Source: Candidatus Ribeiella danica | Lineage (GTDB): Bacteria; Chloroflexota; Chloroflexia; Chloroflexales; Roseiflexaceae | Direction: 5' to 3' | Length of the DNA stretch: 64,000 bases | Assembly (NCBI GenBank): GCA_016717335.1 | Contig: JADKFS010000012.1 | Span: 29,421-93,420 of the forward strand | Shown here: positions 184 to 56,999 of the stretch, piece by piece | How the letters are laid out: the number at the start of each line of letters is the position of its first letter | Numbering within the stretch: the first letter of the stretch is position 1 | Notes under the pieces: generated by a model | Database searches by the model: none | What the model saw: only the letters and a program-made list of their open reading frames with translations | Told to the model about the DNA's origin: nothing | Program-made: the position numbers and the translations under genes

Positions 184-352
184 GGGACTTGGGAGTTGGC
201 ACTTGGGACTTGGGACTTGGGGCTTGGGACTTGGGGCTTGGGAGTTGGGGCTTGGGGCTTGGGGCTTGGGTCACCTTGCCACCCGGTCACCCGGTCACCT
301 TGTCTCCTTGTCTCCTTGTCTCCTTGTCTCCTTGTCTCCTTGTCTCCTTGTC
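184..352. repeat. Tandem short repeats: ~12 copies of heptamer CTTGGGR (184-270) followed by ~7 copies of octamer CCTTGTCT (299-352)
   Basis: Direct reading: gggacttgggagttggcacttgggacttgggacttggggcttggg... then ccttgtctccttgtctccttgtct...; lies between nuoA start and stop of upstream NuoM/N-type gene. Confidence 0.9.
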
Positions 353-1901
353 ACCTGCCAAACGCCGCCATCACCGCCGCGCCGGCCGGGCCAGTCAGCC
401 AGGCGGCCAGCCCCGGCCACACGCCGAGCGCCAGCACCGCCAGCGCCAGCAGGCCCAGCGGGGCGCGCATCGCCGCCGGCAGCGCCTGGCCGCGCCGCAC
501 CGCCGCCGAGGGCTCCAGCCGGTAGACCGCGTTGACCAGCGGCGCGTAGTAGGCCAGCGACAGCACGCTGTTCAGCGCGGCGAACACGACCAGGGCCATG
601 ATCGCCGGGCTGCGGGTCGCGAAGCCGGCGACGAAGATCTGCCACTTCGACATGAAGCCGGCCAGCGGCGGCAGCCCCGCCAGGCCGAGCGCCGCCACGC
701 TGAGCGCGAGCGCCGCCAGCGGGTAGCGCCGCGCCGCCCCGGCCAGGTCGCCCACCACGAGCGATCCGCGCTCGCGCGCCGCGCCGCCCAGGCTGTAGAT
801 CAGCGCGCCGACCGCCAGGAACGCCAGCGCGCTCATCAGGGCGTGCGTGAGCAGGTGGAACAGCCCGCCCTGCGCCCCGGCGGCCTGCCCGGCGTAGACG
901 CCGATGCCCAATCCGAGAAAGATGTAGCCCAGCTGGCCCAGGCTCGAGTACGCCAGCAGGCGCTTGACCTGGGTCTGCCGCAGCGCCAGCAGGTTGCCGG
1001 CCAGGATGTTCAGCGCGCCGAAGCCGATCAGCAGCGCGCCCCACGAGAGCGTCACGCCCGCCAGCGCGCCGAGCGCGCGCAGCAGCGCCACCAGCCCGGC
1101 CTTGGCGACCACCGCCGACATGATCGCGCTGACGCCGCTGGGCGCCTGCTCGTACGCGTCGGGCAGCCAGGCGTGCAGCGGCACCAGCGCGGCCTTGACG
1201 CCGAAGCCGACCAGCAGCAGCGCGCCGGCCGCCAGCAGCGCCGGCGACCCGGCCGCGCGAGCGTGGATCTGCGCCAGGTCGAGCGTGCCGGCCTGCGCCA
1301 GCACCAGCGCGATGCCGAGCAGCGCCAGCACCGAGCCGGCCGTGCCCTGCAGCAGGTACTTCACGCCGGCCTCAAGCGCGGCGGGCTGCCGGTGGTAGAA
1401 GGCCACCAGCACGTACGACACGACCGCCGTCAGCTCGAACCAGACCCACAGGTTGAACAGGTCGCCGGCGCAGGCCAGGCCGATCAGCGCGCCGACCAGC
1501 ACGACCACCAGCGCGTAGTATTTCTCCTCGCCGACGCGGCCGGCCAGGTCGGGGCCCGAGAACAGCGCCACCAGGCCGCCCAGCGCCAGCGCCAGCGCGG
1601 CCACCAGCAGGCCCAGCCCGTCCAGCCGCAGCGCGACCGCGCCGACGGCGAGCGCGACCGCGCCGCCCGACGCCAGCTCGCGCGCGGCCAGGGCGAGCGG
1701 CAGCCACGCGCCGGCCAGTGCCGCCAGCGCGAGCCAGCGCGCAACCCCACCTTGGATCGCCGGTGTTGGATGTTGGATTGACCGAGAAGGCATCCAAAAG
1801 CCAAAATCCAGCATCCAACATTGCAGACGCCCGACCAGATACACGGCCGGCCCGGCGACCAGCGGCAGCGCGACCAGCCAGATCAGCGCGGTGCTGTTCA
1901 T
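351..1901 (-). CDS. nuoN: NADH-quinone oxidoreductase antiporter-like subunit, NuoN/NuoM family (likely NuoN)
   Basis: 516 aa, ~14 predicted TM helices; [27 protein letters not shown] motif typical of Nuo L/M/N antiporter-like subunits; [15 protein letters not shown] resembles NuoN GF-x-K motif. Confidence 0.8.
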
Positions 1902-1903
1902 GC

Positions 1904-3682
1904 TCAGGCCCCCCAGGCCAGGATGGCGAGCACGATCGCGAGCGTGCCGACCACCCCGACCATGTTCCAGCCGAGCAGGCCGGTCTGGGTCGCGCCCAGC
2001 GCCTGCGCGCCGCCGCGCGCCGCGCGTGCGACGCCGCGGTTCAGCCGCTCGAGACCGAACTCATCGGCGGCCCAGCCCGCCAGCCAGCCCAGACGGCCGG
2101 CCGGCCAGCCCAGACGGTCGCGCCACCACCAGGCCGCCAGCCCCAGCGCGGTCGCCCCCAGGCCCAGCAGCGTCGCCGGGGCCGCGAGCACCTGCCAGCA
2201 GATCTGCGCGGTGGTCTCGTAGCGCAGGTTGTGGTATGGCAGGCTGTCGCTCAGCAGCCGGCTGAGCGGCCCGGCCAGCAGCCATGTCGTCAGGCTGCCC
2301 AGCGCCAGCAGCACGAGCGCGACACCCGCGAGCGATGAGCGATGAACGATGAACGATGAACCGGGCTGAGCGCTCTGCGTTCCCTGCTCAGCGTTCGGCG
2401 TTCCGTAGAAGACCATCCAGACCATCCGAAAGGCGTACAGCGCGGTCAGGCCGGCGCCGAGCAGCAGCCCGCCTGTAGCCCACCACGGCGCGGCGGAGAG
2501 GCCGGCCTCGATCAGCAGCTCCTTGCTCCAGAAGCCGTTGAGGAACGGCAGCCCGGCCAGCGCCAGCGCGCCGATCACGAACACATTGCGCGCGAACGGC
2601 AGCCGCCGGCCCAGCCCGCCCATCAGGCGCATGTCGCGCGTGCCGGCCGCCCCGATCGCCGCGCCGGCCGCCAGGAACAGCAGCGCCTTGAACACGGCGT
2701 GGCTGAGCAGGTGCAGCTGGCTCGCGAACAGCGCGCCCGCGCCGACCGCGCAGACCATCGTGCCGAGCTGGCTGATCGTCGAGTAGGCCAGCGCGCGCTT
2801 GAGGTCGGTCGCGACCAGCGCCATCAGCGCCGCCATGACCGCCGACAGCACGCCCACCGCCATCACGGCGGTCGTCCAGCCGGGCACCAACGCGAAGGCC
2901 GGGTAGAAGCGCGCCAGCAGGTAGACCCCCGCGTTGACCATCGTGGCTGCGTGGATCAGCGCGCTGACCGGCGTGGGCGCCTCCATCGCGTCGGGCAGCC
3001 AGGTGTGAAACGGCGCCTGGGCCGACTTTGCCGCGGCCGCGACCAGGAAGCCGAACGCGACCAGCGCCAGCACAGCCGGCGGCAGGCTGGCCGCCTGCGC
3101 CAGCAGCGCGCCGATCTGGTCGGTGCCCAGGGACGCGCGGGCCGCCAGCGAGCCGGCCAGCAGGCCCACGCCGCCGACCTGGGTGATCACTAGCGCCTTG
3201 ACACCGCCGGCCACCGCCTTCGGGTCGTCGTTGTGGAACGAGATCAGCGCGTACGAGCAGAACGCGACCAGCTCCCAGAACAGGAACAGCAGCAGCAGCG
3301 TGCCGGCCAGCGCCAGCCCGGCCATCGCGCCGATGAACAGCAGCACCAGCGCGTAGTAGCGGCCGAGCTGGGCCTTGCCGCGCATGTAGTCGATCGAGAA
3401 CAGCAGCGTCAGGCTGCCGACGACCGTGGCGATCGCGGCCAGGAACAGCCCCAGCCCGTCGGGCACCAGCGTCCACTCGCCGAACACGCCGCCGGCGGGC
3501 AGCCGGATCGCGGCGGCGCTGCCGCCGTAGCCGAGCAGGGCTAGCGATGCCAGGCCCGCGGCAGCGGCGCTGCCGGCCGCCAGGGCGCCCTGCGCGCGCG
3601 GTCGGCGGTCGCCGACGGCCCAGACGGCCAGCGCGCCCAGCCAGGGCAGCCCGATCGTGAGCAACATCAGCCACGCGGCCAT
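1904..3682 (-). CDS. nuoL: NADH-quinone oxidoreductase subunit L
   Basis: 592 aa; FSIDYMRGKAQLGRYYALVLLFIG and TWLPDAMEAPTPVSALIHAATMVNAGVYL are classic NuoL/ND5 motifs; 3-bp gap to downstream antiporter subunit. Confidence 0.85.
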   Translation of the reverse strand: MAAWLMLLTIGLPWLGALAVWAVGDRRPRAQGALAAGSAAAAGLASLALLGYGGSAAAIRLPAGGVFGEWTLVPDGLGLFLAAIATVVGSLTLLFSIDYMRGKAQLGRYYALVLLFIGAMAGLALAGTLLLLFLFWELVAFCSYALISFHNDDPKAVAGGVKALVITQVGGVGLLAGSLAARASLGTDQIGALLAQAASLPPAVLALVAFGFLVAAAAKSAQAPFHTWLPDAMEAPTPVSALIHAATMVNAGVYLLARFYPAFALVPGWTTAVMAVGVLSAVMAALMALVATDLKRALAYSTISQLGTMVCAVGAGALFASQLHLLSHAVFKALLFLAAGAAIGAAGTRDMRLMGGLGRRLPFARNVFVIGALALAGLPFLNGFWSKELLIEAGLSAAPWWATGGLLLGAGLTALYAFRMVWMVFYGTPNAEQGTQSAQPGSSFIVHRSSLAGVALVLLALGSLTTWLLAGPLSRLLSDSLPYHNLRYETTAQICWQVLAAPATLLGLGATALGLAAWWWRDRLGWPAGRLGWLAGWAADEFGLERLNRGVARAARGGAQALGATQTGLLGWNMVGVVGTLAIVLAILAWGA

Positions 3683-5590: not shown

Positions 5591-5670
5591 GAGACAAGGA
5601 GACCGGGAGACAAGGAGAACAAGGCTGACAGCATGCCGCCCCTTCTCCTTGTCCCCTTGCCTCCCGGTCA
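5591..5670. repeat. Inverted pair of GAGACAAG-type octamer arrays forming long imperfect hairpin
   Basis: gagacaaggagaccgggagacaaggagaacaagg ... ccttctccttgtccccttgcctcccggtc between permease start and binding-protein stop. Confidence 0.8.
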
Positions 5671-18350: not shown

Positions 18351-18375
18351 CACCATGCCGAAAAGGAGACTGATA

Positions 18376-20262
18376 GTGCAAGCATCTCCCGCGCGACAGC
18401 GGCCGGCCGGGCGCGGCTCAAGCAGCGGCGGGCTGCGCCGCGCGCTCGGCTACCTTGCCCGGCAGCGCCGCAGCGCCGCGATGGCCTACGGCGCGCTGGT
18501 GGTCGCGACGATCGCCCAGCTCGCGGTGCCGCAGCTGGTGCAGAACATGATCGACGCGGTCACGAACGGCACGATCGCGCGGATCATCCTGGGGCTGCCC
18601 GCGCCGGCCCAGCCGCTCGCGGCGCAGCGCGCCAACACCACGATCGAGCAGCTCAAGGCCAACCAGGCCGGCGCCGAGTCGCTGCTGATCAACGCCGCGC
18701 TGATCATCGTCGCGTTCGCGCTGATGCGCGGCGTGTTCTCGTTCGTGCAGGCGTTCATGGCCGAGAAGACCTCGCAGGGCATGGCGTTCGACCTGCGCAA
18801 CGAGATCTTCGCCAAGATCCAGCGGCTCTCGTTCAGCTACTACGACCGCAACCAGACCGGCCAGCTCATGATCCGCGCCACCGACGACGTCGAGAAGGTG
18901 CGCATGTTCATCGCCCAGGGGCTGGTGCTGGCGGCGCAGGCGTTCCTGCTGCTGACCGCCGCGCTGATCATTCTGGTTCTGACCAACTGGCGGCTCACGC
19001 TGTGGATCCTGCCGACGCTGCCGATCGCGCTGGCGCTGTTCATGGCCTTCGGCGCGATCAGCCAGCCGCTGTTCGGCGAGATCCAGCGCCGGCTCTCGGC
19101 GCTAAACACGATCCTGCAGGAGAACCTGGCCGGCATCAAGGTGATCAAGGCGTTCGCGCGCGAGCCGTACGAGGAGCAGCGCTTCGACCGATCCGCCACG
19201 GCGCTGATGGAGCAGCAGCTGCGCGTCAGCCGGGTCTTCTCGTTCCTGTTCCCGGTGATCTTCCTGATCGCCCAGATCGGCCAGGCGGTGATCCTGTACT
19301 TCGGCGGCCAGCAGATCGTCGCCGGCACGCTGAACCTGGGCGAGTACCAGAAGTTCAGCCTGTACCTGATCTATGTGTTCTTCCCGCTCGGCCAGCTCGG
19401 CTTCATCATCTCGCTGATGGCCCAGGCCGGCGCCTCGGCCGGGCGGATCTTCGAGATCCTCGACTCGAAGAGCGACATCGTCGATCGGCCCGGCGCCGCC
19501 GCCCTGCCGCCGATCGAGGGCCGCGTCGAGCTTCGGCAGGTGACCTTCCGCTACTTCGGCAGCGGCGACCCGGTGCTGCGCGATGTCAGCTTCGTCGCCG
19601 AGCCGGGCCAGACGATCGCGCTGTTGGGGGCCACCGGCAGCGGCAAGACCACGATCATCAACCTCATCCCGCGCTTCTACGACACCAGCGAGGGCGCGAT
19701 CCTGATCGACGGCCACGACATCCGCGACGTCACGCTGGACAGCCTGCGCTCGCAGATCGGCATCGTGCTGCAGGAGACCAACCTGTTCAGCGGGACGATC
19801 CGCGACAACATCGCCTTCGGCCGGCCCGACGCGACGATCGAGCAGGTCCAGGCCGCCGCGCAGGCCGCCTCGGCGCACGACTTCATCATTGGCTTCGCCC
19901 AAGGCTACGACACGCCGGTCGGCGAGCGCGGCACGACGCTCTCGGGCGGGCAGAAGCAGCGCATCGCGATCGCGCGCGCGCTGCTGCTCGACCCGCGCCT
20001 GCTGATCCTGGACGACTCGACCAGCAGCGTCGACCTGCAGACCGAGCACAAGATCCAGCAGGCGCTCGACAACCTGATGCAGGGCCGCACCAGCTTCGTG
20101 ATCGCCCAGCGCATCAGCACCGTGCTGAACGCCGACCAGATCCTGGTGCTCGACAAGGGCCAGGTCGTCGCCGCGGGCGTCCACGAGGAGCTGATGGAGA
20201 GCAGCCCGATCTACGCCGAGATCTACCACTCGCAGCTGATCGGCGACACCGTGACGGCGTGA
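18376..20262 (+). CDS. ABC transporter ATP-binding/permease protein (MsbA-like exporter, half-transporter 1)
   Basis: GTG 18376 seven nt after AAGGAG (ATG at 18355 also possible); 6 TM then NBD with GATGSGKTT Walker A, LSGGQKQRIAIARAL signature, LILDDSTSSVD Walker B. Confidence 0.85.
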   Translation: MQASPARQRPAGRGSSSGGLRRALGYLARQRRSAAMAYGALVVATIAQLAVPQLVQNMIDAVTNGTIARIILGLPAPAQPLAAQRANTTIEQLKANQAGAESLLINAALIIVAFALMRGVFSFVQAFMAEKTSQGMAFDLRNEIFAKIQRLSFSYYDRNQTGQLMIRATDDVEKVRMFIAQGLVLAAQAFLLLTAALIILVLTNWRLTLWILPTLPIALALFMAFGAISQPLFGEIQRRLSALNTILQENLAGIKVIKAFAREPYEEQRFDRSATALMEQQLRVSRVFSFLFPVIFLIAQIGQAVILYFGGQQIVAGTLNLGEYQKFSLYLIYVFFPLGQLGFIISLMAQAGASAGRIFEILDSKSDIVDRPGAAALPPIEGRVELRQVTFRYFGSGDPVLRDVSFVAEPGQTIALLGATGSGKTTIINLIPRFYDTSEGAILIDGHDIRDVTLDSLRSQIGIVLQETNLFSGTIRDNIAFGRPDATIEQVQAAAQAASAHDFIIGFAQGYDTPVGERGTTLSGGQKQRIAIARALLLDPRLLILDDSTSSVDLQTEHKIQQALDNLMQGRTSFVIAQRISTVLNADQILVLDKGQVVAAGVHEELMESSPIYAEIYHSQLIGDTVTA

Positions 20263-20265
20263 GGG

Positions 20266-20333
20266 GGAGACAAGGAGACAAGGAGACAAGGAGACAAGGA
20301 GACAAGGAGACAAGGAGACAAGGAGACAAGGGG
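20266..20333. repeat. Tandem octamer array (GAGACAAG) x8
   Basis: ggagacaaggagacaaggagacaagg... read directly, immediately after stop of ABC gene 1. Confidence 0.95.
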
Positions 20334-20358
20334 AAGGTCTGTTTGTAGTGGGAGGTGG

Positions 20359-20793
20359 ATGATGGGTGGGAAGATACGGACGCATCGCGAGCTGGAGGCT
20401 TATCGAAAAGCTTTTGACACTGCGATGGAGATCTTCGAGCTGTCGAGAGGCTTCCCACGTGAAGAGACCTATTCGCTCACGGATCAGATCCGTCGCTCAT
20501 CGCGCTCGGTCTGTGCAAACTTGGCGGAGGCCTGGCGCAAGCGCCGCTACGAGAAAGCATTCGTCGCCAAACTCTGCGACGCCGAGAGCGAGGCCGCCGA
20601 GACACAGGTTTGGCTGGAGTTCGCGCTCAAGTGCGGCTACATCCAGCGGGATAACGCCAATGCGCTCTATCAAGCCTGCGAAGAGGTTACCAAGCTGCTT
20701 GTCAGCATGATTGCCAGCCCGGAGAAATGGACGATCGGCTACTCAGACAGATCGATCCAGGAGGCTTCTGAAGAATATGAGGCACTCCTGTAA
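20359..20793 (+). CDS. Four-helix-bundle protein (23S rRNA intervening-sequence protein family)
   Basis: 144 aa; RELEAYRKAFDTAMEIFELSRGFPREETYSLTDQIRRSSRSVCANLAEAWRKRRYEKAFVAKLCDAESEAAETQVWLEFALKCGYI matches family consensus; markedly lower GC (~55%) than flanks. Confidence 0.8.
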   Translation: MMGGKIRTHRELEAYRKAFDTAMEIFELSRGFPREETYSLTDQIRRSSRSVCANLAEAWRKRRYEKAFVAKLCDAESEAAETQVWLEFALKCGYIQRDNANALYQACEEVTKLLVSMIASPEKWTIGYSDRSIQEASEEYEALL

Positions 20794-20822
20794 ATCTCAG
20801 CTCATCGAGAAGCTGCTGCCGA

Positions 20823-20849
20823 TCTCCTTGTCTCCTTGTCTCCTTGTCT
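20823..20849. repeat. Tandem octamer array (TCTCCTTG) x3.5, inverse orientation of 20266-20333 array
   Basis: tctccttgtctccttgtctccttgtc read directly. Confidence 0.9.
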
Positions 20850-20918: not shown

Positions 20919-22961
20919 ATGATGGGAGGACCCGGCGGTCCCGGCCGCCTCTTGAATACCGAGGCCCAGAAGCCCAAGAATCTGGGCGCGACGCTGGCGC
21001 GGTTCGGCTACTACTTCGGCAAGTACTGGGTCGGCATTGTGCTAACCATGCTGCTGATCGTCGGCGGCGTCTGGACGCAGGTGACCGCGCCGGAGCTGAT
21101 CGGCCAGGCGGTCGACTGCTACCTGGCGCCGCAGGCCGGCGCCAGCAGCTGCTGGTACACGGCCGCCGACCCCGCCGCGACGGCGGACGCGCGGGTGGCC
21201 GGCCTAGGCGCGCTGGTGCTGCTGCTGGTGGCGCTGTTCGTGGGCGGCTCGCTGATGAACGGCCTGGCCTTCTACACAATGAACTGGTCGGGCCAGCACG
21301 CGCTGCGGCGCATTCGCGAGGACCTGTTCGAGCAGGTGCACCGGCTGTCGCTGGGCTACTACGCCGAGAACGAGGCCGGCAACGTCATGAGCCGGATCAC
21401 CAGCGATACCGACACGATCCAGCAGGCGATCGGCTTCGCGCTGATCAACGTCGTCAGCGGCGCGCTGCTGATCGTCTGGATCATGGTCAAGATGCTGCAG
21501 GAGAACGTGCCCTACGCGCTGCTGAGCCTGAGCGTCGTGCCGGTGATGGCGGTGGCGACCGGCTACTTCTCGGGCCAGGCGCGCAAGGCCTTCCGCAAGA
21601 GCCGCCAGCAGATGGGCAACGTCAACGCCGGCCTGCAGGAGAGCATCGCCGGCGTGCGCGAGGTCCAGGCGTTCAACCGCGAGGACGAGAGCATCGAGCA
21701 GTTCCGCCGCGCCAACGCCGCCAACCGCGACGCGAACGTGCGCGCGGCCAGCTTCACCACCGCGCTGAACCCGGTGCTCGAGGCGCTCGGCTACGTCGCG
21801 CTGGCGATCGTCGTGGTGGTCGGCGGCCTGTCGCTGCTGCGCGGCCAGCCGCTGCTGGGCGGCAGGGCGATCACGCTCGGCGTGGTGTTCGCGTTCCTGC
21901 AGTACGTGCAGCGCTTCAACCAGCCGATCCAGCAGATCGCGGTGCTGTGGACCAACGTGCAGAGCGCGATCGCCGGCGGCGAGCGGATCTTCGGCCTGCT
22001 CGACGTCGCGCCCGAGATCAGCGACAAGCCCGGCGCGATCGAGATGCCGCCGATCCGCGGGCGGGTCGCGTTCGAGGATGTGACGTTCAGCTACCAGGCT
22101 GGGACAAGGGACTTGGGGCTAGGAGCTAGGGATCAGGGATCGGAGGCCCGTAATACGGCGATCGCCGCATCGAATGGCACCGGAGCTCAGGCCCCAAGCC
22201 CCAAGCCCCGAGCCCCGAGCCCCGACGGCTCACAAGCCCCAAGCCCCAAGCTCCAAGCCCCAACCGTGCTGAACGGCGTCTCGCTCGTCGCCGAGCCGGG
22301 CCAGATGATCGCGATCGTCGGGCCGACCGGCGCGGGCAAGACCACGATCATCAACCTCATCCCGCGCTTCTACGACGTGTCGAGCGGCGCGGTCAAGATC
22401 GACGGGGTCGACGTGCGCGACGTGACGCGCACCAGCCTGCGCTCGCAGATCGGCATCGTGCTGCAGGACTCGTTCCTGTTCTCCGACACGGTGATGAACA
22501 ACATCCGCTACGGCCGTCTCGACGCGACCGACGAGGAGGTGATCGCCGCGGCGAAGCTGGCCTCGGCCGACAGCTTCATCGAGCGGCTGCCCGAGGGCTA
22601 CCAGACGGTCCTGGGCGAGCGCGGCAGCGGCCTGAGCCAGGGCCAGCGCCAGCTGATCTCGATCGCGCGCGCGGCGCTGGCCAGCCCGCGCATCCTGATC
22701 CTCGACGAGGCGACATCGAGCGTGGACACGCGCACCGAGCGGCTGATCCAGAAGGCGTTCGACCAGCTGCTGGAGGGCCGCACCAGCTTCGTGATCGCCC
22801 ACCGGCTCAGCACGATCCAGCACGCCGATCAGGTACTGATGCTCCAGGCCGGCCAGATCGTCGAGCGCGGCACCCACGCCGAGCTGCTGGCCCGGCGCGG
22901 CCCGTACTACGATCTGTACATGAGCCAGTTCCGCCGCGAGGAGGAGCAGGTCGGGACGTGA
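20919..22961 (+). CDS. ABC transporter ATP-binding/permease protein (half-transporter 2) carrying an in-frame repeat-encoded insertion in the NBD
   Basis: Start MMGGPGGPGRLL (ATG 20919/20922); 6 TM; NBD with GPTGAGKTT, LSQGQRQLISIARAA, LILDEATSSVD; ~55-aa insertion between FSYQ and VLNGVSL relative to paralog upstream. Confidence 0.85.
   Translation: MMGGPGGPGRLLNTEAQKPKNLGATLARFGYYFGKYWVGIVLTMLLIVGGVWTQVTAPELIGQAVDCYLAPQAGASSCWYTAADPAATADARVAGLGALVLLLVALFVGGSLMNGLAFYTMNWSGQHALRRIREDLFEQVHRLSLGYYAENEAGNVMSRITSDTDTIQQAIGFALINVVSGALLIVWIMVKMLQENVPYALLSLSVVPVMAVATGYFSGQARKAFRKSRQQMGNVNAGLQESIAGVREVQAFNREDESIEQFRRANAANRDANVRAASFTTALNPVLEALGYVALAIVVVVGGLSLLRGQPLLGGRAITLGVVFAFLQYVQRFNQPIQQIAVLWTNVQSAIAGGERIFGLLDVAPEISDKPGAIEMPPIRGRVAFEDVTFSYQAGTRDLGLGARDQGSEARNTAIAASNGTGAQAPSPKPRAPSPDGSQAPSPKLQAPTVLNGVSLVAEPGQMIAIVGPTGAGKTTIINLIPRFYDVSSGAVKIDGVDVRDVTRTSLRSQIGIVLQDSFLFSDTVMNNIRYGRLDATDEEVIAAAKLASADSFIERLPEGYQTVLGERGSGLSQGQRQLISIARAALASPRILILDEATSSVDTRTERLIQKAFDQLLEGRTSFVIAHRLSTIQHADQVLMLQAGQIVERGTHAELLARRGPYYDLYMSQFRREEEQVGT
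22096..22262. repeat. Heptamer-type tandem repeats (GGGACAA/GGGACTT/CTAGGGA then CCCCAAG/CCCCGAG x~9) embedded in-frame inside ABC transporter CDS
   Basis: gggacaagggacttggggctaggagctagggatcagggatcgg...gccccaagccccaagccccgagccccgagccccgacggctcacaagccccaagccccaagctccaagcccc; translates GTRDLGLGARDQGS...APSPKPRAPSPDGSQAPSPKLQAP. Confidence 0.9.
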
Positions 22962-24539: not shown

Positions 24540-25100
24540 CGTGGGGGCTGCGCGCCCCCGTGCCCCCCGGCCGGGGCTTGCGCCCCTGGACCCCAAGGAG
24601 ACCAGGTGACAAGGTGACAAGATGCCAACGTGCCAACGTGCCAACAGGCTTGGAACGATGGACAGATGACACAGCCCGTTGCAGCCCGACCGGTCGGAAT
24701 GTGGATGGGCATGCGCCACGATCATTGCAACTGATCCGGCATCATTTGCCGGAGGGGGGCCGGGGGAACCGGCGCGGGTTCCCCCGGGCGGGGGGCGCAG
24801 GCCCGAAAGAAACGGGGGGGGGCGCAGCGCCCGAAAGACAGCCCGCGCAGCTTCCTGAACCGGCGCGGGTTCCCCCGGGCGGGGGGCCGGGGGGCGCAGC
24901 GCCCCGAAAGAAACCGGGCGGGGGGCCGGGGGCGCAGCGCCCCGAAAGACAGCCCGCGCAGCTTCCTGAACCGGCGCGGGTTCCCCCGGGCGGGGGGCCG
25001 GGGGCGCAGCGCCCCGAAAGAAACCGGGCGGGGGGCCGGGGGCGCAGCGCCCCGAAAGACAGCCCGCGCAGCGCCCCACCCAGCACCGGCGCAGCCGGCA
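24540..25100. repeat. Composite GC-rich repeat cluster: family C fragment (GGGGCTTGCGCCCCTGGACCCCAA), GTGACAA/GTGCCAAC short tandems, CATCATTTGCCGGAGGGGGGCC module, then ~110-bp unit x3 built of GGGGCGCAGCGCCCCGAAAGA hairpins
   Basis: Read directly; 24770-25080 contains three near-identical ~111-bp units. Confidence 0.85.
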
Positions 25101-43239: not shown

Positions 43240-43244
43240 TGCCA

Positions 43245-43480
43245 GTCGGCAGTCGGCAGTGCGGCAGTCGGCAGTGCGGCAGCAGGCAGTCGGCAGTCGG
43301 CAGCAGGCAGTCGGCAGCAGGCAGTCGGCAGCAGCAGGCAGTCGGCAGTCGGCAGGCAGTCGGCAGCAGGCAGTCGGCAGTCGGCAGCAGGCAGTCGGCA
43401 GTGCGGCGAAGGCATTCCAACGCGATTCAACATGCGCTCGTCGCGCTCTACAATCTACAATCTACAATCTGCAATCTACA
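43245..43480. repeat. Tandem arrays: (CAGTCGGCAG/CAGTGCGGCAG/CAGCAGGCAG)n ~17 units (43245-43430) then (TACAATC/TGCAATC) x5 (43441-43478)
   Basis: Read directly; 3' end of the GAF-protein CDS (..RLRVVDCRL) runs into the TACAATC array. Confidence 0.95.
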
Positions 43481-44847
43481 ACGCGCAGCCGGTCGGCGAT
43501 CAGGCCGCCGAGCAGCATCAGCAGCGTCTGGGTCGCGATGTCGGCGGGCCGCCCGAGCGCGGCCAGCACGACCGGCATATCCGCGCCCGCGCCGACCGGC
43601 AGGCAGACCAGGCTCGCGCGCCCTTCGGCGCGCACCAGCGGACGATCTCCGCGCAGCGCCTCGGCGGCCACCCGCAGCTGCGCCCCGCTCAGGTGCGGCG
43701 GGGTGGCGCCCGGCCGCCCGCGCGCGAAGACGAACGGGGCCAGGGCGTGCAGCTCGTCGGGGGCCAGCAGCGCCAGCCAGTCCAGATCGAGCACGCCTGC
43801 CAGTCTGCGGCAGGCCTCCTGGCAAGCCTCCCGGGGGTCGGGCGCGATGCGGAGCAGCCCGGCGGTCTCCCAGAGCGCGGTCAGCGCGGCCTGCTGGCGC
43901 CGCAGCTGCGCGTCGTGGCGCAGCGCCAGCGCCCGCAGCCCGACCAGCGCCGCCAGCTGCTCAAGGCCCGAGCGGCGGGCCGGGGTGAGATCGCCGGCGG
44001 GCAGCTCGATCCGGCCAAGCACGGCGCCGCAGCTGATCGGTATGCGTGCTGTGCCGGCGCAGCCATCGTGCTCAGGCAGGCTCCCCGCTCCCGCGTCGGC
44101 CAGCTCGACCACGGCGAGCGCGCCGCCAATCGCGCCGGCCTGCTCGCGCGCTAATCTCACCAGCGCGTCGATCGTCGCGCAGGCGTTGACCTGCGCGGCC
44201 AGGCGCCTCCAGTCGACGCGCCCAGCAGCCTCGCGGCCGTGATCGTGCGCCCTGGCGATCGTGCCGGCGTAGAGCGCGCGCAGCGCCAGCCGCACCTGCT
44301 CGCGAATGCGATAGACCGTGGCTCCGCCGATCAGCTGCACGGCCAGCATCGCCGCCAGCAGGCCCGGCGCCGGGCGAGAGACGGCGCAACCCGAGAGCAG
44401 GACCAGCGCGCCGACGCCGCTGCCCACCAGCGCGTCGCGCGCCGAGCCGAGCAGGGCGCCCTGGACGACGAGCAGCAGCGGCAGGCCAAGGAGCGGGCTG
44501 CCGGCGCCGCCGCTCCCCAGGATCAGCAGCCCGGCCGCCAGCCCGTCGGACAGCAGCGCGAGCGCGAGCGGCAGCCGCCAGGCCAGGCCCGCGCCGAGCG
44601 CGAGCGCCGACAGCGCGGCGGCGAGATAGAGTGCGGCCGGCCAGGTCGCCGGGGGAACATTCCAGCCCAGCGCTATCAGCGCGAGCAGCAGCAAGCAGCC
44701 GCGGACGGCGAATGATGCAGCCGTGCTCAGGCGCGCGAGGCGGCGCTGGAAGTGACTCAGGGCGGGCGCCTCGCCGTGCCGATCGCCTTGAGGCGTCACC
44801 GGCGGCCGAATGGAAGCGGCGCGAGACGGGCGGAGCGAGATGATCAT
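43462..44847 (-). CDS. Membrane-anchored GAF-domain sensor-like protein without recognisable output domain
   Basis: 461 aa; ~5 N-terminal TM helices then two GAF-like regions (by composition/inference); no kinase or cyclase motifs seen. Confidence 0.55.
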   Translation of the reverse strand: MIISLRPSRAASIRPPVTPQGDRHGEAPALSHFQRRLARLSTAASFAVRGCLLLLALIALGWNVPPATWPAALYLAAALSALALGAGLAWRLPLALALLSDGLAAGLLILGSGGAGSPLLGLPLLLVVQGALLGSARDALVGSGVGALVLLSGCAVSRPAPGLLAAMLAVQLIGGATVYRIREQVRLALRALYAGTIARAHDHGREAAGRVDWRRLAAQVNACATIDALVRLAREQAGAIGGALAVVELADAGAGSLPEHDGCAGTARIPISCGAVLGRIELPAGDLTPARRSGLEQLAALVGLRALALRHDAQLRRQQAALTALWETAGLLRIAPDPREACQEACRRLAGVLDLDWLALLAPDELHALAPFVFARGRPGATPPHLSGAQLRVAAEALRGDRPLVRAEGRASLVCLPVGAGADMPVVLAALGRPADIATQTLLMLLGGLIADRLRVVDCRL

Positions 44848-46301: not shown

Positions 46302-46722
46302 AACAGTAGTAAAAATCTTGTTAAATCCCTGTTACGAAGGATAGCACGGCCATCCCAGCTTATGCTATAGTAGGTTGCACGCATCTTTGGCTGCTGCAAT
46401 GCAGTGATTTCAATAGAGCTGAGATCGAGTACTTGAGTTGGAGTATCTGGCGTACATACAACGAGGTACGTTTCCACCGGGCTCATCGAAGAAGAAGCTC
46501 TCAGGCCTGGGGTAAACGGGTGTGACCGCAAGCTAAGAGCAGGCGATCGCACAGGCGATCCGGGTTCGACCGAAGACCGAAGACGGAGGGCGGCGGTCAA
46601 TCGTCGTCGGCCCTCCGTCCTCCGTCAAACAAACACGGATCAATATTCCGACTGGCTGTACTAAGGGCCGCGGAGGTGTATCGCGCTGCCCGGCGCGGCG
46701 GCAAGAGGCAAAGAGGTTATCG
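46302..46722. promoter_or_regulatory. 420-bp AT-rich (approx 50% GC) divergent intergenic region with hairpin GACGGAGGGC-n18-GCCCTCCGTC; probable promoters and possibly a small RNA
   Basis: Sharp GC drop relative to 70% flanks; no convincing ORF (103-aa track ORF has poor codon bias); hairpin at 46579-46616. Confidence 0.4.
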
Positions 46723-54202: not shown

Positions 54203-54432
54203 CGAACGCTGAACGCTGAACGTTGAACGCTGAACGCTGAACGTTGAACGCTGAACGCTGAACGCTGAACGAACGTTTGAACGCGTTTGAATGTTTGAAC
54301 GTTGAACGTTTGATCGAACGCTTTGAACGTTTGAACGTTTGAACGCCGGCTATCAACAGCCCCAAGCCCCAAGCCCCAAGCCCCAAGCCCCAAGCCCCAA
54401 GCCCCCAGGCCCAAGCCCCAAGCCCCACTCGT
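54203..54432. repeat. Two adjacent tandem heptamer arrays: (GAACGCT/GAACGTT/GAACGTTT)n ~20 units (54203-54352) then (CCCCAAG) x10 (54358-54432)
   Basis: Read directly. Confidence 0.95.
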
Positions 54433-56915: not shown

Positions 56916-56999
56916 GGGGACGTGGCGAAATGGCAGACGCGCAAGTCTTAGGAACTTGTGGAGCAATCCGTAAGGGTTCAAGTCCCTTCGTCCCCACCA
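56916..56999 (+). tRNA. tRNA-Leu (anticodon TAG)
   Basis: GGGGACG...CGTCCCCACCA acceptor stem, anticodon stem-loop CAAGT-CTTAGGA-ACTTG, long variable arm, T-arm AAGGGTTCAAGTCCCTT, encoded CCA; 84 nt. Confidence 0.85.

Follow-up and report, generated by a model that had tools for sequence, protein, structure and literature searches.

Rickettsia palindromic elements (RPEs) are, according to a review, short (about 100-150 bp) palindromic DNA sequences that lie in frame within unrelated housekeeping genes and are translated with the protein left intact; their copies are dispersed and fall into defined consensus families in which the encoded peptide is conserved, several genes per genome contain them, and their sites are believed to be ones that the fold of the protein can tolerate (PMC10969869). 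Heptanucleotide tandem arrays are a further described group, with the quadruplex-forming GGGNATC and GGGGA(C/T)T arrays of Xanthomonas and Nostoc (PMC4692102) and the TAACTGA tandem repeats (PMC4679880) as examples. Here we describe an in-frame repeat insert in the downstream one of two neighbouring genes for ATP-binding cassette (ABC) exporter subunits, located in a stretch of 64,000 nucleotides (64 kb) of contig JADKFS010000012.1 from Candidatus Ribeiella danica, hereafter the window, with a G+C content (GC) of 70.6%. By analogy with the systems mentioned above, we would describe the tract as a Rickettsia-RPE-like 'protein-coding palindrome' built from arrays similar to the short tandemly repeated repetitive (STRR) sequences. 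Inverted arrays of hepta- and octanucleotides are present in large numbers in genomes of the Kouleothrix group (Roseiflexaceae, Chloroflexota), and the element is one of them.

The window element shares three features of the RPEs: it is a palindrome with the potential to form a hairpin, it lies in frame in a constrained gene, and it occupies a protein surface predicted to tolerate it, this last point according to an AlphaFold2 model only. A further likeness is the presence of three in-frame cases within the 64-kb window. On the other hand, a family of dispersed copies sharing a consensus and a conserved peptide was looked for and not found here, where only units of 7-8 nt recur; one and the same site bears alleles whose tandem-array arms are unrelated; and the window host is a free-living, filamentous member of the Chloroflexota with about 70% GC, whereas the RPE host has a reduced alpha-proteobacterial genome (PMC10969869). 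On this comparison RPEs are the closest functional analogy, but the window element is not a member of that class.

The likeness to the heptamers of the STRR type and to those of Nostoc and Xanthomonas resides in the genome-wide presence of heptamer arrays of 2-26 units, mostly intergenic and near gene ends (PMC4692102, PMC4679880), and the GGGGATT and GGGACTT-like units of the window resemble the GGGGA(C/T)T unit of Nostoc (PMC4692102). The arrays of Nostoc and Xanthomonas are, however, direct and under-represented in coding DNA (PMC4692102), whereas those of the window form inverted pairs and hairpins, and some of them are translated. Specific heptamer arrays were found at many, mainly intergenic, loci of the window, as expected of STRR sequences; the cyanobacterial origin of the latter is not shared, the nearest relatives of the window being Kouleothrix and Roseiflexaceae (Chloroflexota). 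The window units presumably differ as well from the published cyanobacterial STRR consensus units.

[quoted passage not shown] In the window element, whose arms are tandem repeats, neither transposon terminal inverted repeats nor a target-site duplication was found; no cognate transposase or RAYT was found among the about 30 window ORFs scanned, and the element looks resident rather than freshly transposed. With the contingency loci of host-adapted pathogens it has in common a repeat within an ORF whose unit is not a multiple of three, but the tracts studied here are short and imperfect, no copy-number variation was found at the population level, and the gene is neither a surface nor a restriction-modification gene. 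The intervening sequences (IVS) of 23S rRNA that carry PF05635 are also insertions bounded by inverted repeats in a transcribed functional gene region; the ABC insert, on the contrary, has no ORF of its own, is translated through, and shows nothing pointing to excision. In the literature we found no report on hepta- or octamer hairpin arrays in Kouleothrix or Chloroflexi, or on inserts placed after the A-loop of an ABC protein.

The insert and its host gene

The insert starts one residue past the A-loop tyrosine of the nucleotide-binding domain (NBD), between ...GTGACGTTCAGCTAC (VTFSY, last base 22094) and GTGCTGAACGGC (VLNG, from 22266). Analysis with Tandem Repeats Finder identified its right arm (22191-22263) as an array of period 7 with 10.0 copies of GCCCCAA (79% matches, score 84). 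Read on the opposite strand, this unit gives the TTGGGGC-type units found in the left arm, which makes the tract an imperfect palindrome, and a repeat search revealed six inverted pairs (I1-I6) in it, with arm complementarity of 70% between 22101-22137 and 22180-22216 and of 89% between 22113-22131 and 22245-22263. The minimum free energy (MFE) of the folded tract was -77.3 kcal/mol in comparison with -64.1 ± 3.9 kcal/mol in dinucleotide shuffles (z = -3.4; z = -2.2 when wider flanks were included). These data show that the tract is one long hairpin of paired tandem arrays. The coordinates of its parts and of the neighbouring features, together with the insert alleles of relatives, are collected in Table 1.

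Table 1. Features of the ABC exporter locus in the window and insert alleles compared with it (z, folding z-score)
Feature	Position	Strand	Details
Upstream paralogue, partner half-transporter	18355..20262	+	Degenerate-site subunit; 6-residue linker FGSGDP; no insert
Hairpin-bounded element between the ABC genes	20266..20849	+	GGAGACAA x8.2 (20266-20331) and inverse TCTCCTTG x3.4 (20823-20849)
ABC exporter gene, downstream half-transporter	20919..22961	+	680 aa; PF00664 and PF00005; TM_0288 match
Strand beta1 with A-loop tyrosine	22056..22094	+	GRVAFEDVTFSY; allele-specific left flank
In-frame insert	22095..22265	+	171 nt, 57 codons (QAGTRD...KLQAPT); bounds by alignment
Left arm of insert	22097..22145	+	Degenerate G-rich heptamers GGGACAA, GGGACTT, GGGGCTA, GGAGCTA, GGGATCA, GGGATCG; peptide GTRDLGLGARDQGS
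Central hairpin loop	22146..22190	+	Palindrome GGCGATCGCC at 22157-22166; apex AATGG at 22173-22177 ('NG' in the peptide)
Right arm of insert	22191..22263	+	GCCCCAA/GCCCCGA heptamers; peptide APSPKPRAPSPDGSQAPSPKLQAP
Start of strand beta2 (VLNGVSL)	22266..22286	+	Allele-specific right flank; strongly conserved Walker A region next
Window allele			Arms TTGGGGC-type / GCCCCAA; z = -3.4
Allele L081			Arms CCACCGA / TCGGTGG; z = -3.7
Allele L167			Arms CCACCGA / TCGGTGG
Allele L162			Arms GGAGACAA / TTGTCTCC; z = -5.4
Allele L165			Arms GGAGACAA / TTGTCTCC; z = -4.4
Allele L166			Arms GGGGATA / TCCCCAA; z = -2.5
Allele L163			Arm unit not assigned; z = -2.0
Allele L164			Unit CCGACGA; z = -0.8
Allele L002			Unit GACCAAA; z = -0.8
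Allele L161			30-nt purine-rich unit; z = -1.3
Allele L084			z = -0.4
Alleles L001, L083			Kouleothrix aurantiaca and relatives; short alleles of 63-66 nt; z = -0.35, hairpin potential absent

The GC of the window insert at the three codon positions (GC1/2/3) is flat (0.68/0.70/0.65), and so is that of the inserts as a set (0.67/0.62/0.64), whereas the gene shows values of 0.65/0.47/0.91. This composition shows an insert DNA that is non-coding in character, yet in frame and free of stop codons, and hence predicted to be translated. In an AlphaFold2 model of the protein, strands beta1 and beta2 comprise residues 383-391 and 449-458, and residues 394-445 have a predicted local distance difference test (pLDDT) score below 50 and no secondary structure. 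The insert is thus modelled as a disordered, solvent-exposed loop at the beta1-beta2 turn, on the beta-subdomain.

The host gene lies in a frame that stays open without interruption from 20844 (705 aa) or 20919 to 22961 on the + strand; the true start is most likely the ATG at 20919, which has GGAG in front. Two Pfam domains were identified in the 705-aa ORF, ABC_membrane (PF00664, E = 7.8e-43) at residues 67-358 and ABC_tran (PF00005, E = 3.1e-30) at residues 476-625, and the NCBIfam exporter models each aligned to the protein as two pieces, because the repeat tract interrupts them. Among solved bacterial relatives, TM_0288 (E = 1e-127) was nearest in the sequence search, along with chain 5mkk_A of TmrAB, and a Foldseek search with the AlphaFold2 model returned TM288 (4q4h_B, 3qf4_B) and 5mkk_A as top matches with a probability of 1.00. 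The translated downstream subunit has a Walker B motif with the canonical glutamate (ILDEATSSVD), a canonical H-loop (IAHRLST) and a degenerate signature (LSQGQRQ); in the upstream subunit Walker B (ILDDSTSSVD) and H-loop (IAQRIST) are non-canonical and the signature (LSGGQKQ) is canonical. TM287/288-type exporters show an established asymmetry, with one degenerate and one consensus ATP site. The window pair has both the fold and this asymmetry of TM287/288 and TmrAB, and its downstream gene is assigned, from these motifs and matches, as the TM288/TmrA-like consensus-site subunit of a heterodimeric type IV ABC exporter. By the TM287/288-type asymmetry, the catalytically competent site takes its Walker A/B motifs, H-loop and A-loop from the insert-bearing chain. 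The ratio of nonsynonymous to synonymous substitution rates (dN/dS) in insert-bearing genes was 0.12-0.35, which is an upper bound because the insert codons were counted in, and shows that the exporter gene is under purifying selection.

A first-pass annotation of this DNA had reported an in-frame insertion of heptamer repeats in the ATP-binding domain of an ABC exporter, and the continuous ORF, the Pfam and NCBIfam matches and the array delimited by Tandem Repeats Finder bear this out. Its limits for the insertion (22096-22262, about 55 aa) have to be replaced by the alignment bounds 22095-22265, with a net gain of about 52 residues; its description of the repeats holds, having overlooked that one block is the inverted complement of the other and that together they form a palindrome. 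It was also right in that the upstream paralogue lacks the insertion, the partner subunit having the FGSGDP linker in the window and a linker of 6 residues in 77 of 80 loci. Finally, its proposal of a tolerated surface-loop insertion derived from STRR-like arrays agrees with the recurrence of the units in intergenic DNA and with the AlphaFold2 model, which places the insertion in the loop between beta1 and beta2 (pLDDT < 50).

Rfam searches of the whole window at gathering thresholds gave no match for the insert, the sole match being a tRNA at 56916-56996 (58.9 bits). An intein, intron or bypass element was considered and rejected: the ORF is open, the Q...T|V junction lacks the Cys/Ser...His-Asn residues, and a tract of 171 nt is much too short for a self-splicing intron. 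Within the 64-kb window the whole element (arms plus loop) is present only once, and no target-site duplication was visible at the insert junctions when loci were compared. In database searches the best matches to the window protein were 77-85% identical; no independent copy of the window allele was found, the best full-length match being 82% identical and the best match of an insert-region query, 85% identical, covering the flank only.

Insert alleles and their probable exchange among relatives

Relatives were compared as a set of the 120 best homologues, a set of 160 loci fetched by tblastn, and the DNA of 13 insert alleles. The linker that follows '..AEY' consists of exactly 5 residues (consensus K-x-G-x-P) in 98 of the 120 homologues, in contrast to the 57 residues found between the A-loop and beta2 in the window, and an insert of 18-79 aa is present at the identical codon, always in frame, in 22 of them. 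These insert-bearing homologues are 73-82% identical to the window protein and belong to Kouleothrix or Roseiflexaceae where named. At the DNA level, the linker measures exactly 15 nt in 154 of the 160 tblastn loci and 63-129 nt, in all cases a multiple of 3, in the other six. The flanks are specific to the allele class: the left flank V[S/T/A]FSY occurs in all 22 insert alleles and in none of the 98 insert-free ones, which have ..AEY, AAY or AGY, and the residue that follows VL in the right flank is K or N in insert alleles vs R, H or Q in insert-free alleles. Neither an 'AEY + insert' nor an 'FSY + 5 aa' allele was found among the 120 homologues. Insert-bearing alleles were recovered from NCBI, ENA, JGI and Logan assemblies, and one of their carriers, Kouleothrix aurantiaca COM-B, is cultured. 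Altogether, these sequence comparisons show that the insertion site is fixed and the frame kept in a functional gene.

Most of the 13 alleles are hairpins of paired short-repeat arrays, with a unit that varies from allele to allele. The insert peptides are a three-frame read-through of the repeat units (DKETRRQGD...LPVSLSP, PPTTDHR...SVVGRQS, GNGSQAPQSPIPN), and their composition tracks the unit, being rich in G/A/P/S, in D/K/E/T/R or in P/T/D/H/R. Stems across the folded alleles ranged from -40 to -77 kcal/mol. Inserts of the same type in different backbones show 74-82% nucleotide identity, whereas no alignment is possible between different types, even though the flanks show about 90% identity; alleles vary by whole repeat units and not by point changes. 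A common element is the motif AATGG, found near the centre of 7 of the 13 inserts (about one is expected by composition, and none of 5000 shuffles reached seven); the other window hairpins that were inspected lack it. The window allele is of the TTGGGGC/GGGGATT type; its GCCCCAA unit is one base off the TCCCCAA unit of L166, with which it has the peptide 'NG(S/T)..QAP(S)P' in common, and further alleles of the TCCCCAA/GGGGATT type are present in other assemblies (L166, P0010, P0013, P0293 and P0296). Seven inserts of at least three repeat types (P0010, P0011, P0013, P0019, P0022, P0024 and P0027) have exactly 35 aa, that is 105 nt or 15 heptamers, and the octamer allele L165 has 120 nt, or 15 octamers.

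The insert of P0001 equals that of P0004 plus about 25 central residues (TRPRTEHAGAVEPEQDLTRSPVHPLTRSAD), in backbones that are 93.8% identical, and could be a case of a second element nested inside the loop of the first. G-quadruplex formation was considered as a conserved property of the inserts and discarded: the left arm of the window allele has G3 tracts, with a spacing similar to that in the GGGNATC repeats of Nostoc and Xanthomonas (PMC4692102), but the GGAGACAA and CCACCGA alleles lack them.

The inserts are stable among close relatives. Eight clusters at ≥ 90% identity comprise 51 sequences, drawn from independent NCBI, ENA, JGI and Logan assemblies, and insert length within each was constant, with the exception of one difference of 21 vs 22 residues and of the multiply frameshifted P0288; differences within clusters were point substitutions, and up to 14 independent assemblies per cluster gave identical insert alleles. 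In P0288 (517 aa, cluster of P0027) the frame is lost in the PPTTD repeat, is briefly regained (RSSVIG) and is then lost again, so that either the allele has decayed or the repeat contains indel errors. Such constancy of length within clusters argues against rapid contingency variation by slippage, and likewise against an assembly artefact affecting the whole class.

On the contrary, the type of insert and its presence or absence are distributed without regard to the gene backbone. P0022, with a 35-aa insert, is 94.5% identical to the insert-free P0044, 10 of their 38 differences lying within about 17 residues around the site, and it is only about 87% identical to P0024, which bears nearly the same insert. 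Backbones that are 93-95% identical (P0011, P0012, P0013, P0015 and P0019) bear different insert types, and the CCACCGA type was found in backbones whose membrane domains share only 75% identity (P0001 and P0022). The DNA of P0022 and P0044 (loci L167 and L168, respectively) comes from one metagenome, JGI sample 3300050231, and is about 92% identical over both ABC genes, except for a patch around the insert that reaches about 39 nt upstream and about 20 nt downstream. The sequence comparison thus shows a multi-allelic state, incongruent with the gene backbone, of both insert type and insert presence; this incongruence, together with the L167/L168 patch, would be most simply read as old cassette alleles, the empty one included, that are exchanged by homologous recombination.

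The 90 nt of 100% identity to the right of the insert in L167 and L168 were considered as a recombination scar and dismissed, the codons of the Walker A region being near-invariant in all loci. The spacer between the ABC genes is wholly different in these two loci, with a hairpin array of ATAGAAG/CTTCTAT in L168 and unrelated sequence in L167; therefore, the turnover of intergenic hairpin arrays keeps pace with that of the coding cassette. Synteny between the two loci is broken downstream of the ABC gene.

Origin and persistence of the insert

We consider it probable that the insert is a resident translated hairpin that entered the gene once and is carried as a passenger, with cassette alleles swapped by recombination. 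The AATGG core and the common FSY-type flanks indicate descent of the inserts from one insertion event, and the element would have entered the ABC-gene site once, in the ancestor of the clade. It would persist because nearly every peptide without a stop can be accommodated by the loop, as a passenger and not as a working part of the pump; the coil of the structural model, the flat GC at codon positions, the dN/dS of 0.12-0.35 in the genes, and the persistence of short alleles without a hairpin in K. aurantiaca are the points that suggest this. The cassette alleles would comprise the TTGGGGC/GGGGATT, CCACCGA and GGAGACAA types, a decayed short type and the insert-free allele, and homologous recombination via the strongly conserved flanking codons would move them between strains. 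Within an allele, the arms would change by replication slippage, limited to outcomes that preserve the frame and create no stop codon, and their complementarity would be kept by intrastrand template switching (quasipalindrome correction) and not by selection on the protein.

Several points weigh against this explanation. All comparisons come from metagenome assemblies, and the single origin is deduced from a 5-nt motif and short flanks. Units such as GGAGACAA reappear at numerous unrelated loci, and do so in different genomes, so that purely local slippage is insufficient, which hints at ectopic templating or at an active writing of arrays. The regularity of 35 aa (105 nt) in seven alleles and the 15 octamers of L165 are not predicted by a neutral passenger model. 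Arm complementarity and a conserved apex could equally reflect selection for RNA or DNA structure, and the remodelling of beta1 (AEY to FSY, E to V) could mean that the protein has adapted to the loop or makes use of it. Since unit recurrence, the modal length of 105 nt and beta1 remodelling are left unexplained, a selected structure and the writing or copying of arrays have to be kept as alternatives. According to the latter, an active, structure-directed process would write or rewrite complementary arrays at hairpins throughout the genomes of Kouleothrix-group Chloroflexota and yield hypervariable loops at permissive codons; it may consist of templated synthesis or of ectopic copying between arrays that are alike only in architecture, and it could be linked to the PF05635 genes inside hairpins of the same kind. 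We regard such a process as decidedly unlikely.

IVS elements are substrates of RNase III, by which they are excised from rRNA. The tract could similarly be a selected mRNA or DNA hairpin, with the loop as the price, whose function would be an RNase III-type processing or decay that tunes subunit stoichiometry, a pause between the membrane domain and the NBD, or a replication or recombination signal. The pairing of arms is kept despite unrelated arm sequences, the AATGG apex is conserved, the stems are very stable, and the neighbouring spacer shows the same architecture around a gene for a '23S rRNA IVS protein'. This explanation is nevertheless unlikely: insert-free alleles are the family norm and coexist with insert alleles in one sample, short alleles without a hairpin persist (L001, L083 and P0006, the last with 18 aa), z-scores are weak in L002, L164, L084 and L161 (Table 1), no Rfam family matches, and like hairpins are scattered in intergenic DNA at inconsistent positions. 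Very unlikely, in turn, is a recurrent and independent insertion at a hotspot codon by structure- or sequence-specific integration, each event with its own arms. The FSY-type flank of all insert alleles, with no mixed allele among the 120 homologues, and the AATGG core, common to the inserts and absent from the other window hairpins inspected, argue against it, as do the lack of transposase, integrase, RAYT and reverse transcriptase among the about 30 window ORFs scanned and of an evident target-site duplication; it would account for the unalignable arms between flanks about 90% identical, for the length of 105 nt common to seven alleles of different type, for the resemblance of P0001 to P0004 with a 25-aa segment nested centrally, and for units that occur in arrays elsewhere in the genome.

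A contingency locus and an assembly artefact had been offered by the first-pass annotation as further possibilities. In a contingency (phase-variable) locus the gain or loss of a single unit would shift the frame and toggle the exporter, the unit length not being a multiple of 3; P0288 is frameshifted inside the PPTTD array, and lengths within a type differ by multiples of 7 aa (P0296, 35 aa; P0293, 49 aa). We consider it highly improbable, since the 51 sequences in eight clusters keep their insert length save for the 21/22-aa difference, the arrays are short and imperfect (79% matches in the window, perfect runs below 3 units), the target is a housekeeping-type exporter and not a surface antigen, and the several compensating shifts of P0288 are typical of sequencing error or decay. 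The length polymorphism between related strains that the annotation had proposed to look for was limited to that single difference in clusters at ≥ 90% identity, and of the frameshifted orthologues that it had named as a refutation P0288 was the only one, all other inserts being in frame. It is extremely unlikely that the insert is a functional peptide, that is a selected, disordered region rich in Gly/Ala/Pro/Ser, for example for docking or phosphorylation (SPK motifs), which regulates the consensus ATPase site: the loop adjoins the A-loop of the active site, beta1 is remodelled in every insert allele and the frame has been kept over a long divergence (dS 0.4-0.5), but peptide conservation between alleles is limited to 'NG' and the flanks, composition shifts with the repeat unit, codon-position GC is flat, and most of the family and co-occurring strains do without the loop. 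The probability that the tract or its copy number results from repeat misassembly in this window is close to negligible. Repeat arrays and hairpins are classic trouble spots of assembly, and no near-identical copy of the window protein that would confirm its allele independently was found in the databases; against this stand an intact frame, flanks of the insert-allele type (FSY, VLNG), the occurrence of related same-type alleles in further assemblies (L166, P0010, P0013, P0293, P0296), identical alleles in up to 14 independent assemblies per cluster, and a hairpin insert in the NuoN-like gene of the same genome that is identical in P0121. For the class as a whole, an artefact is contradicted by the recovery, from NCBI, ENA, JGI and Logan assemblies, of insert alleles that keep the frame and occupy the same codon. 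The shared insertion site across the clade, the unrelated arms, the allele-specific flanks and the signs of recombinational exchange had all been overlooked in the annotation.

If confirmed, the resident translated hairpin would represent a second lineage, remote from Rickettsia, in which selfish-looking palindromic DNA is translated in working genes, with paired tandem-repeat arrays and a large, GC-rich, free-living genome as new aspects. It would also be a natural tolerance experiment, in which the turn beside the A-loop of an active ABC NBD takes 18-79 near-arbitrary residues, of use for tags or sensors. A locus with dozens of alleles would serve as a test bed for the co-evolution of arms (template switching vs selection) and for cassette shuffling. 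Kouleothrix filaments are associated with bulking of activated sludge, and the cassette could be used as a hypervariable strain marker for this genus. Were arrays actively written, the process would be a repeat-based diversification of protein loops distinct from diversity-generating retroelements (DGRs), contingency loci and transposition.

Repeat arrays elsewhere in the window

Arrays with a period of 7 or 8 number at least 16 in the 64-kb window, and few units are re-used among them: the GGAGACAA family four times, TTGGGGC/GCCCCAA three times and GGTCACC twice. Units of the insert type were found in intergenic arrays, TTGGGAC/TTGGGGC at 182-270 and ten copies of AGCCCCA at 54358-54427. Arrays are present as inverted pairs at 5593-5669, at 46560-46626 and at 20266-20331 / 20823-20849. 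In the few kb available for each relative many arrays were seen, none of them sharing the ABC-insert unit of that genome, a sample of uninformative size.

The last of these inverted pairs bounds the element between the ABC genes. Its arms are 27 nt long and 100% complementary, and it encloses an ORF (20359..20793) for a four-helix bundle protein (PF05635/TIGR02436, '23S rRNA IVS protein'; E = 4.5e-32 for PF05635). A tblastn search with this protein against the window and 168 fetched loci gave one copy only; the ABC-ABC spacers of relatives measure 84-360 nt and contain other, unrelated hairpins and arrays without a PF05635 ORF. The element looks like a cargo-carrying version of the hairpin architecture of the ABC insert. 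The insert as a DGR target was a candidate that we rejected: the adjacent ORF matches PF05635 with E = 4.5e-32 vs 3.8e-06 for bAvd, the scanned ORFs include no reverse transcriptase, and variation proceeds by units and is not adenine-specific.

Two further genes of the window, neighbours of the complex-I type, carry translated repeats in the form of in-frame heptamer inserts smaller than that of the ABC gene. The NuoN/MrpD-like gene at 351..1901 (- strand) has an in-frame hairpin at 1764-1821, with TTGGATG/CATCCAA arms, in the loop between transmembrane helices TM1 and TM2, a loop whose length varies from about 0 to 45 residues among 120 homologues. The same insert is found unchanged in the ENA protein P0121 (99% identical), and P0129, a homologue with 62% identity, has a related segment (ILDFGFWM...QNPQSH). 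The NuoL/MrpA-like gene at 1904..3682 (- strand) has 10 additional residues, QPGSSFIVHR, at 2333-2404, where four copies of TTCATCG lie beside GAACGCC/GAACGCT; this segment is absent from 20 representative NuoL-like homologues. The inserts of these two genes indicate that translated repeat DNA is a habit of the genome and not a peculiarity of the ABC gene. A Pfam scan of about 30 window ORFs revealed no transposase, integrase, RAYT or reverse transcriptase.

Dense intergenic arrays were observed at gene ends or starts at 182-356, 5593-5669, 24594-24644, 43243-43481, 46560-46626 and 54204-54427. Units of the intergenic arrays include TTGGGAC (12.7 copies), GTCTCCTT (7.9 copies), CAGTCGG (23 copies), GAACGCT (9.7 copies) and AGCCCCA (10 copies), and several of the arrays are inverted pairs. 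A repeat of another kind, at 24818-25072, occupies the spacer between a Na+/H+ exchanger-like gene and a DAK2-domain gene; it consists of 2.3 copies, with 98% identity, of a very G+C-rich 110-nt unit that contains sub-repeats of 38 nt (GGGGGCGCAGCGCCCCGAAAGA...).

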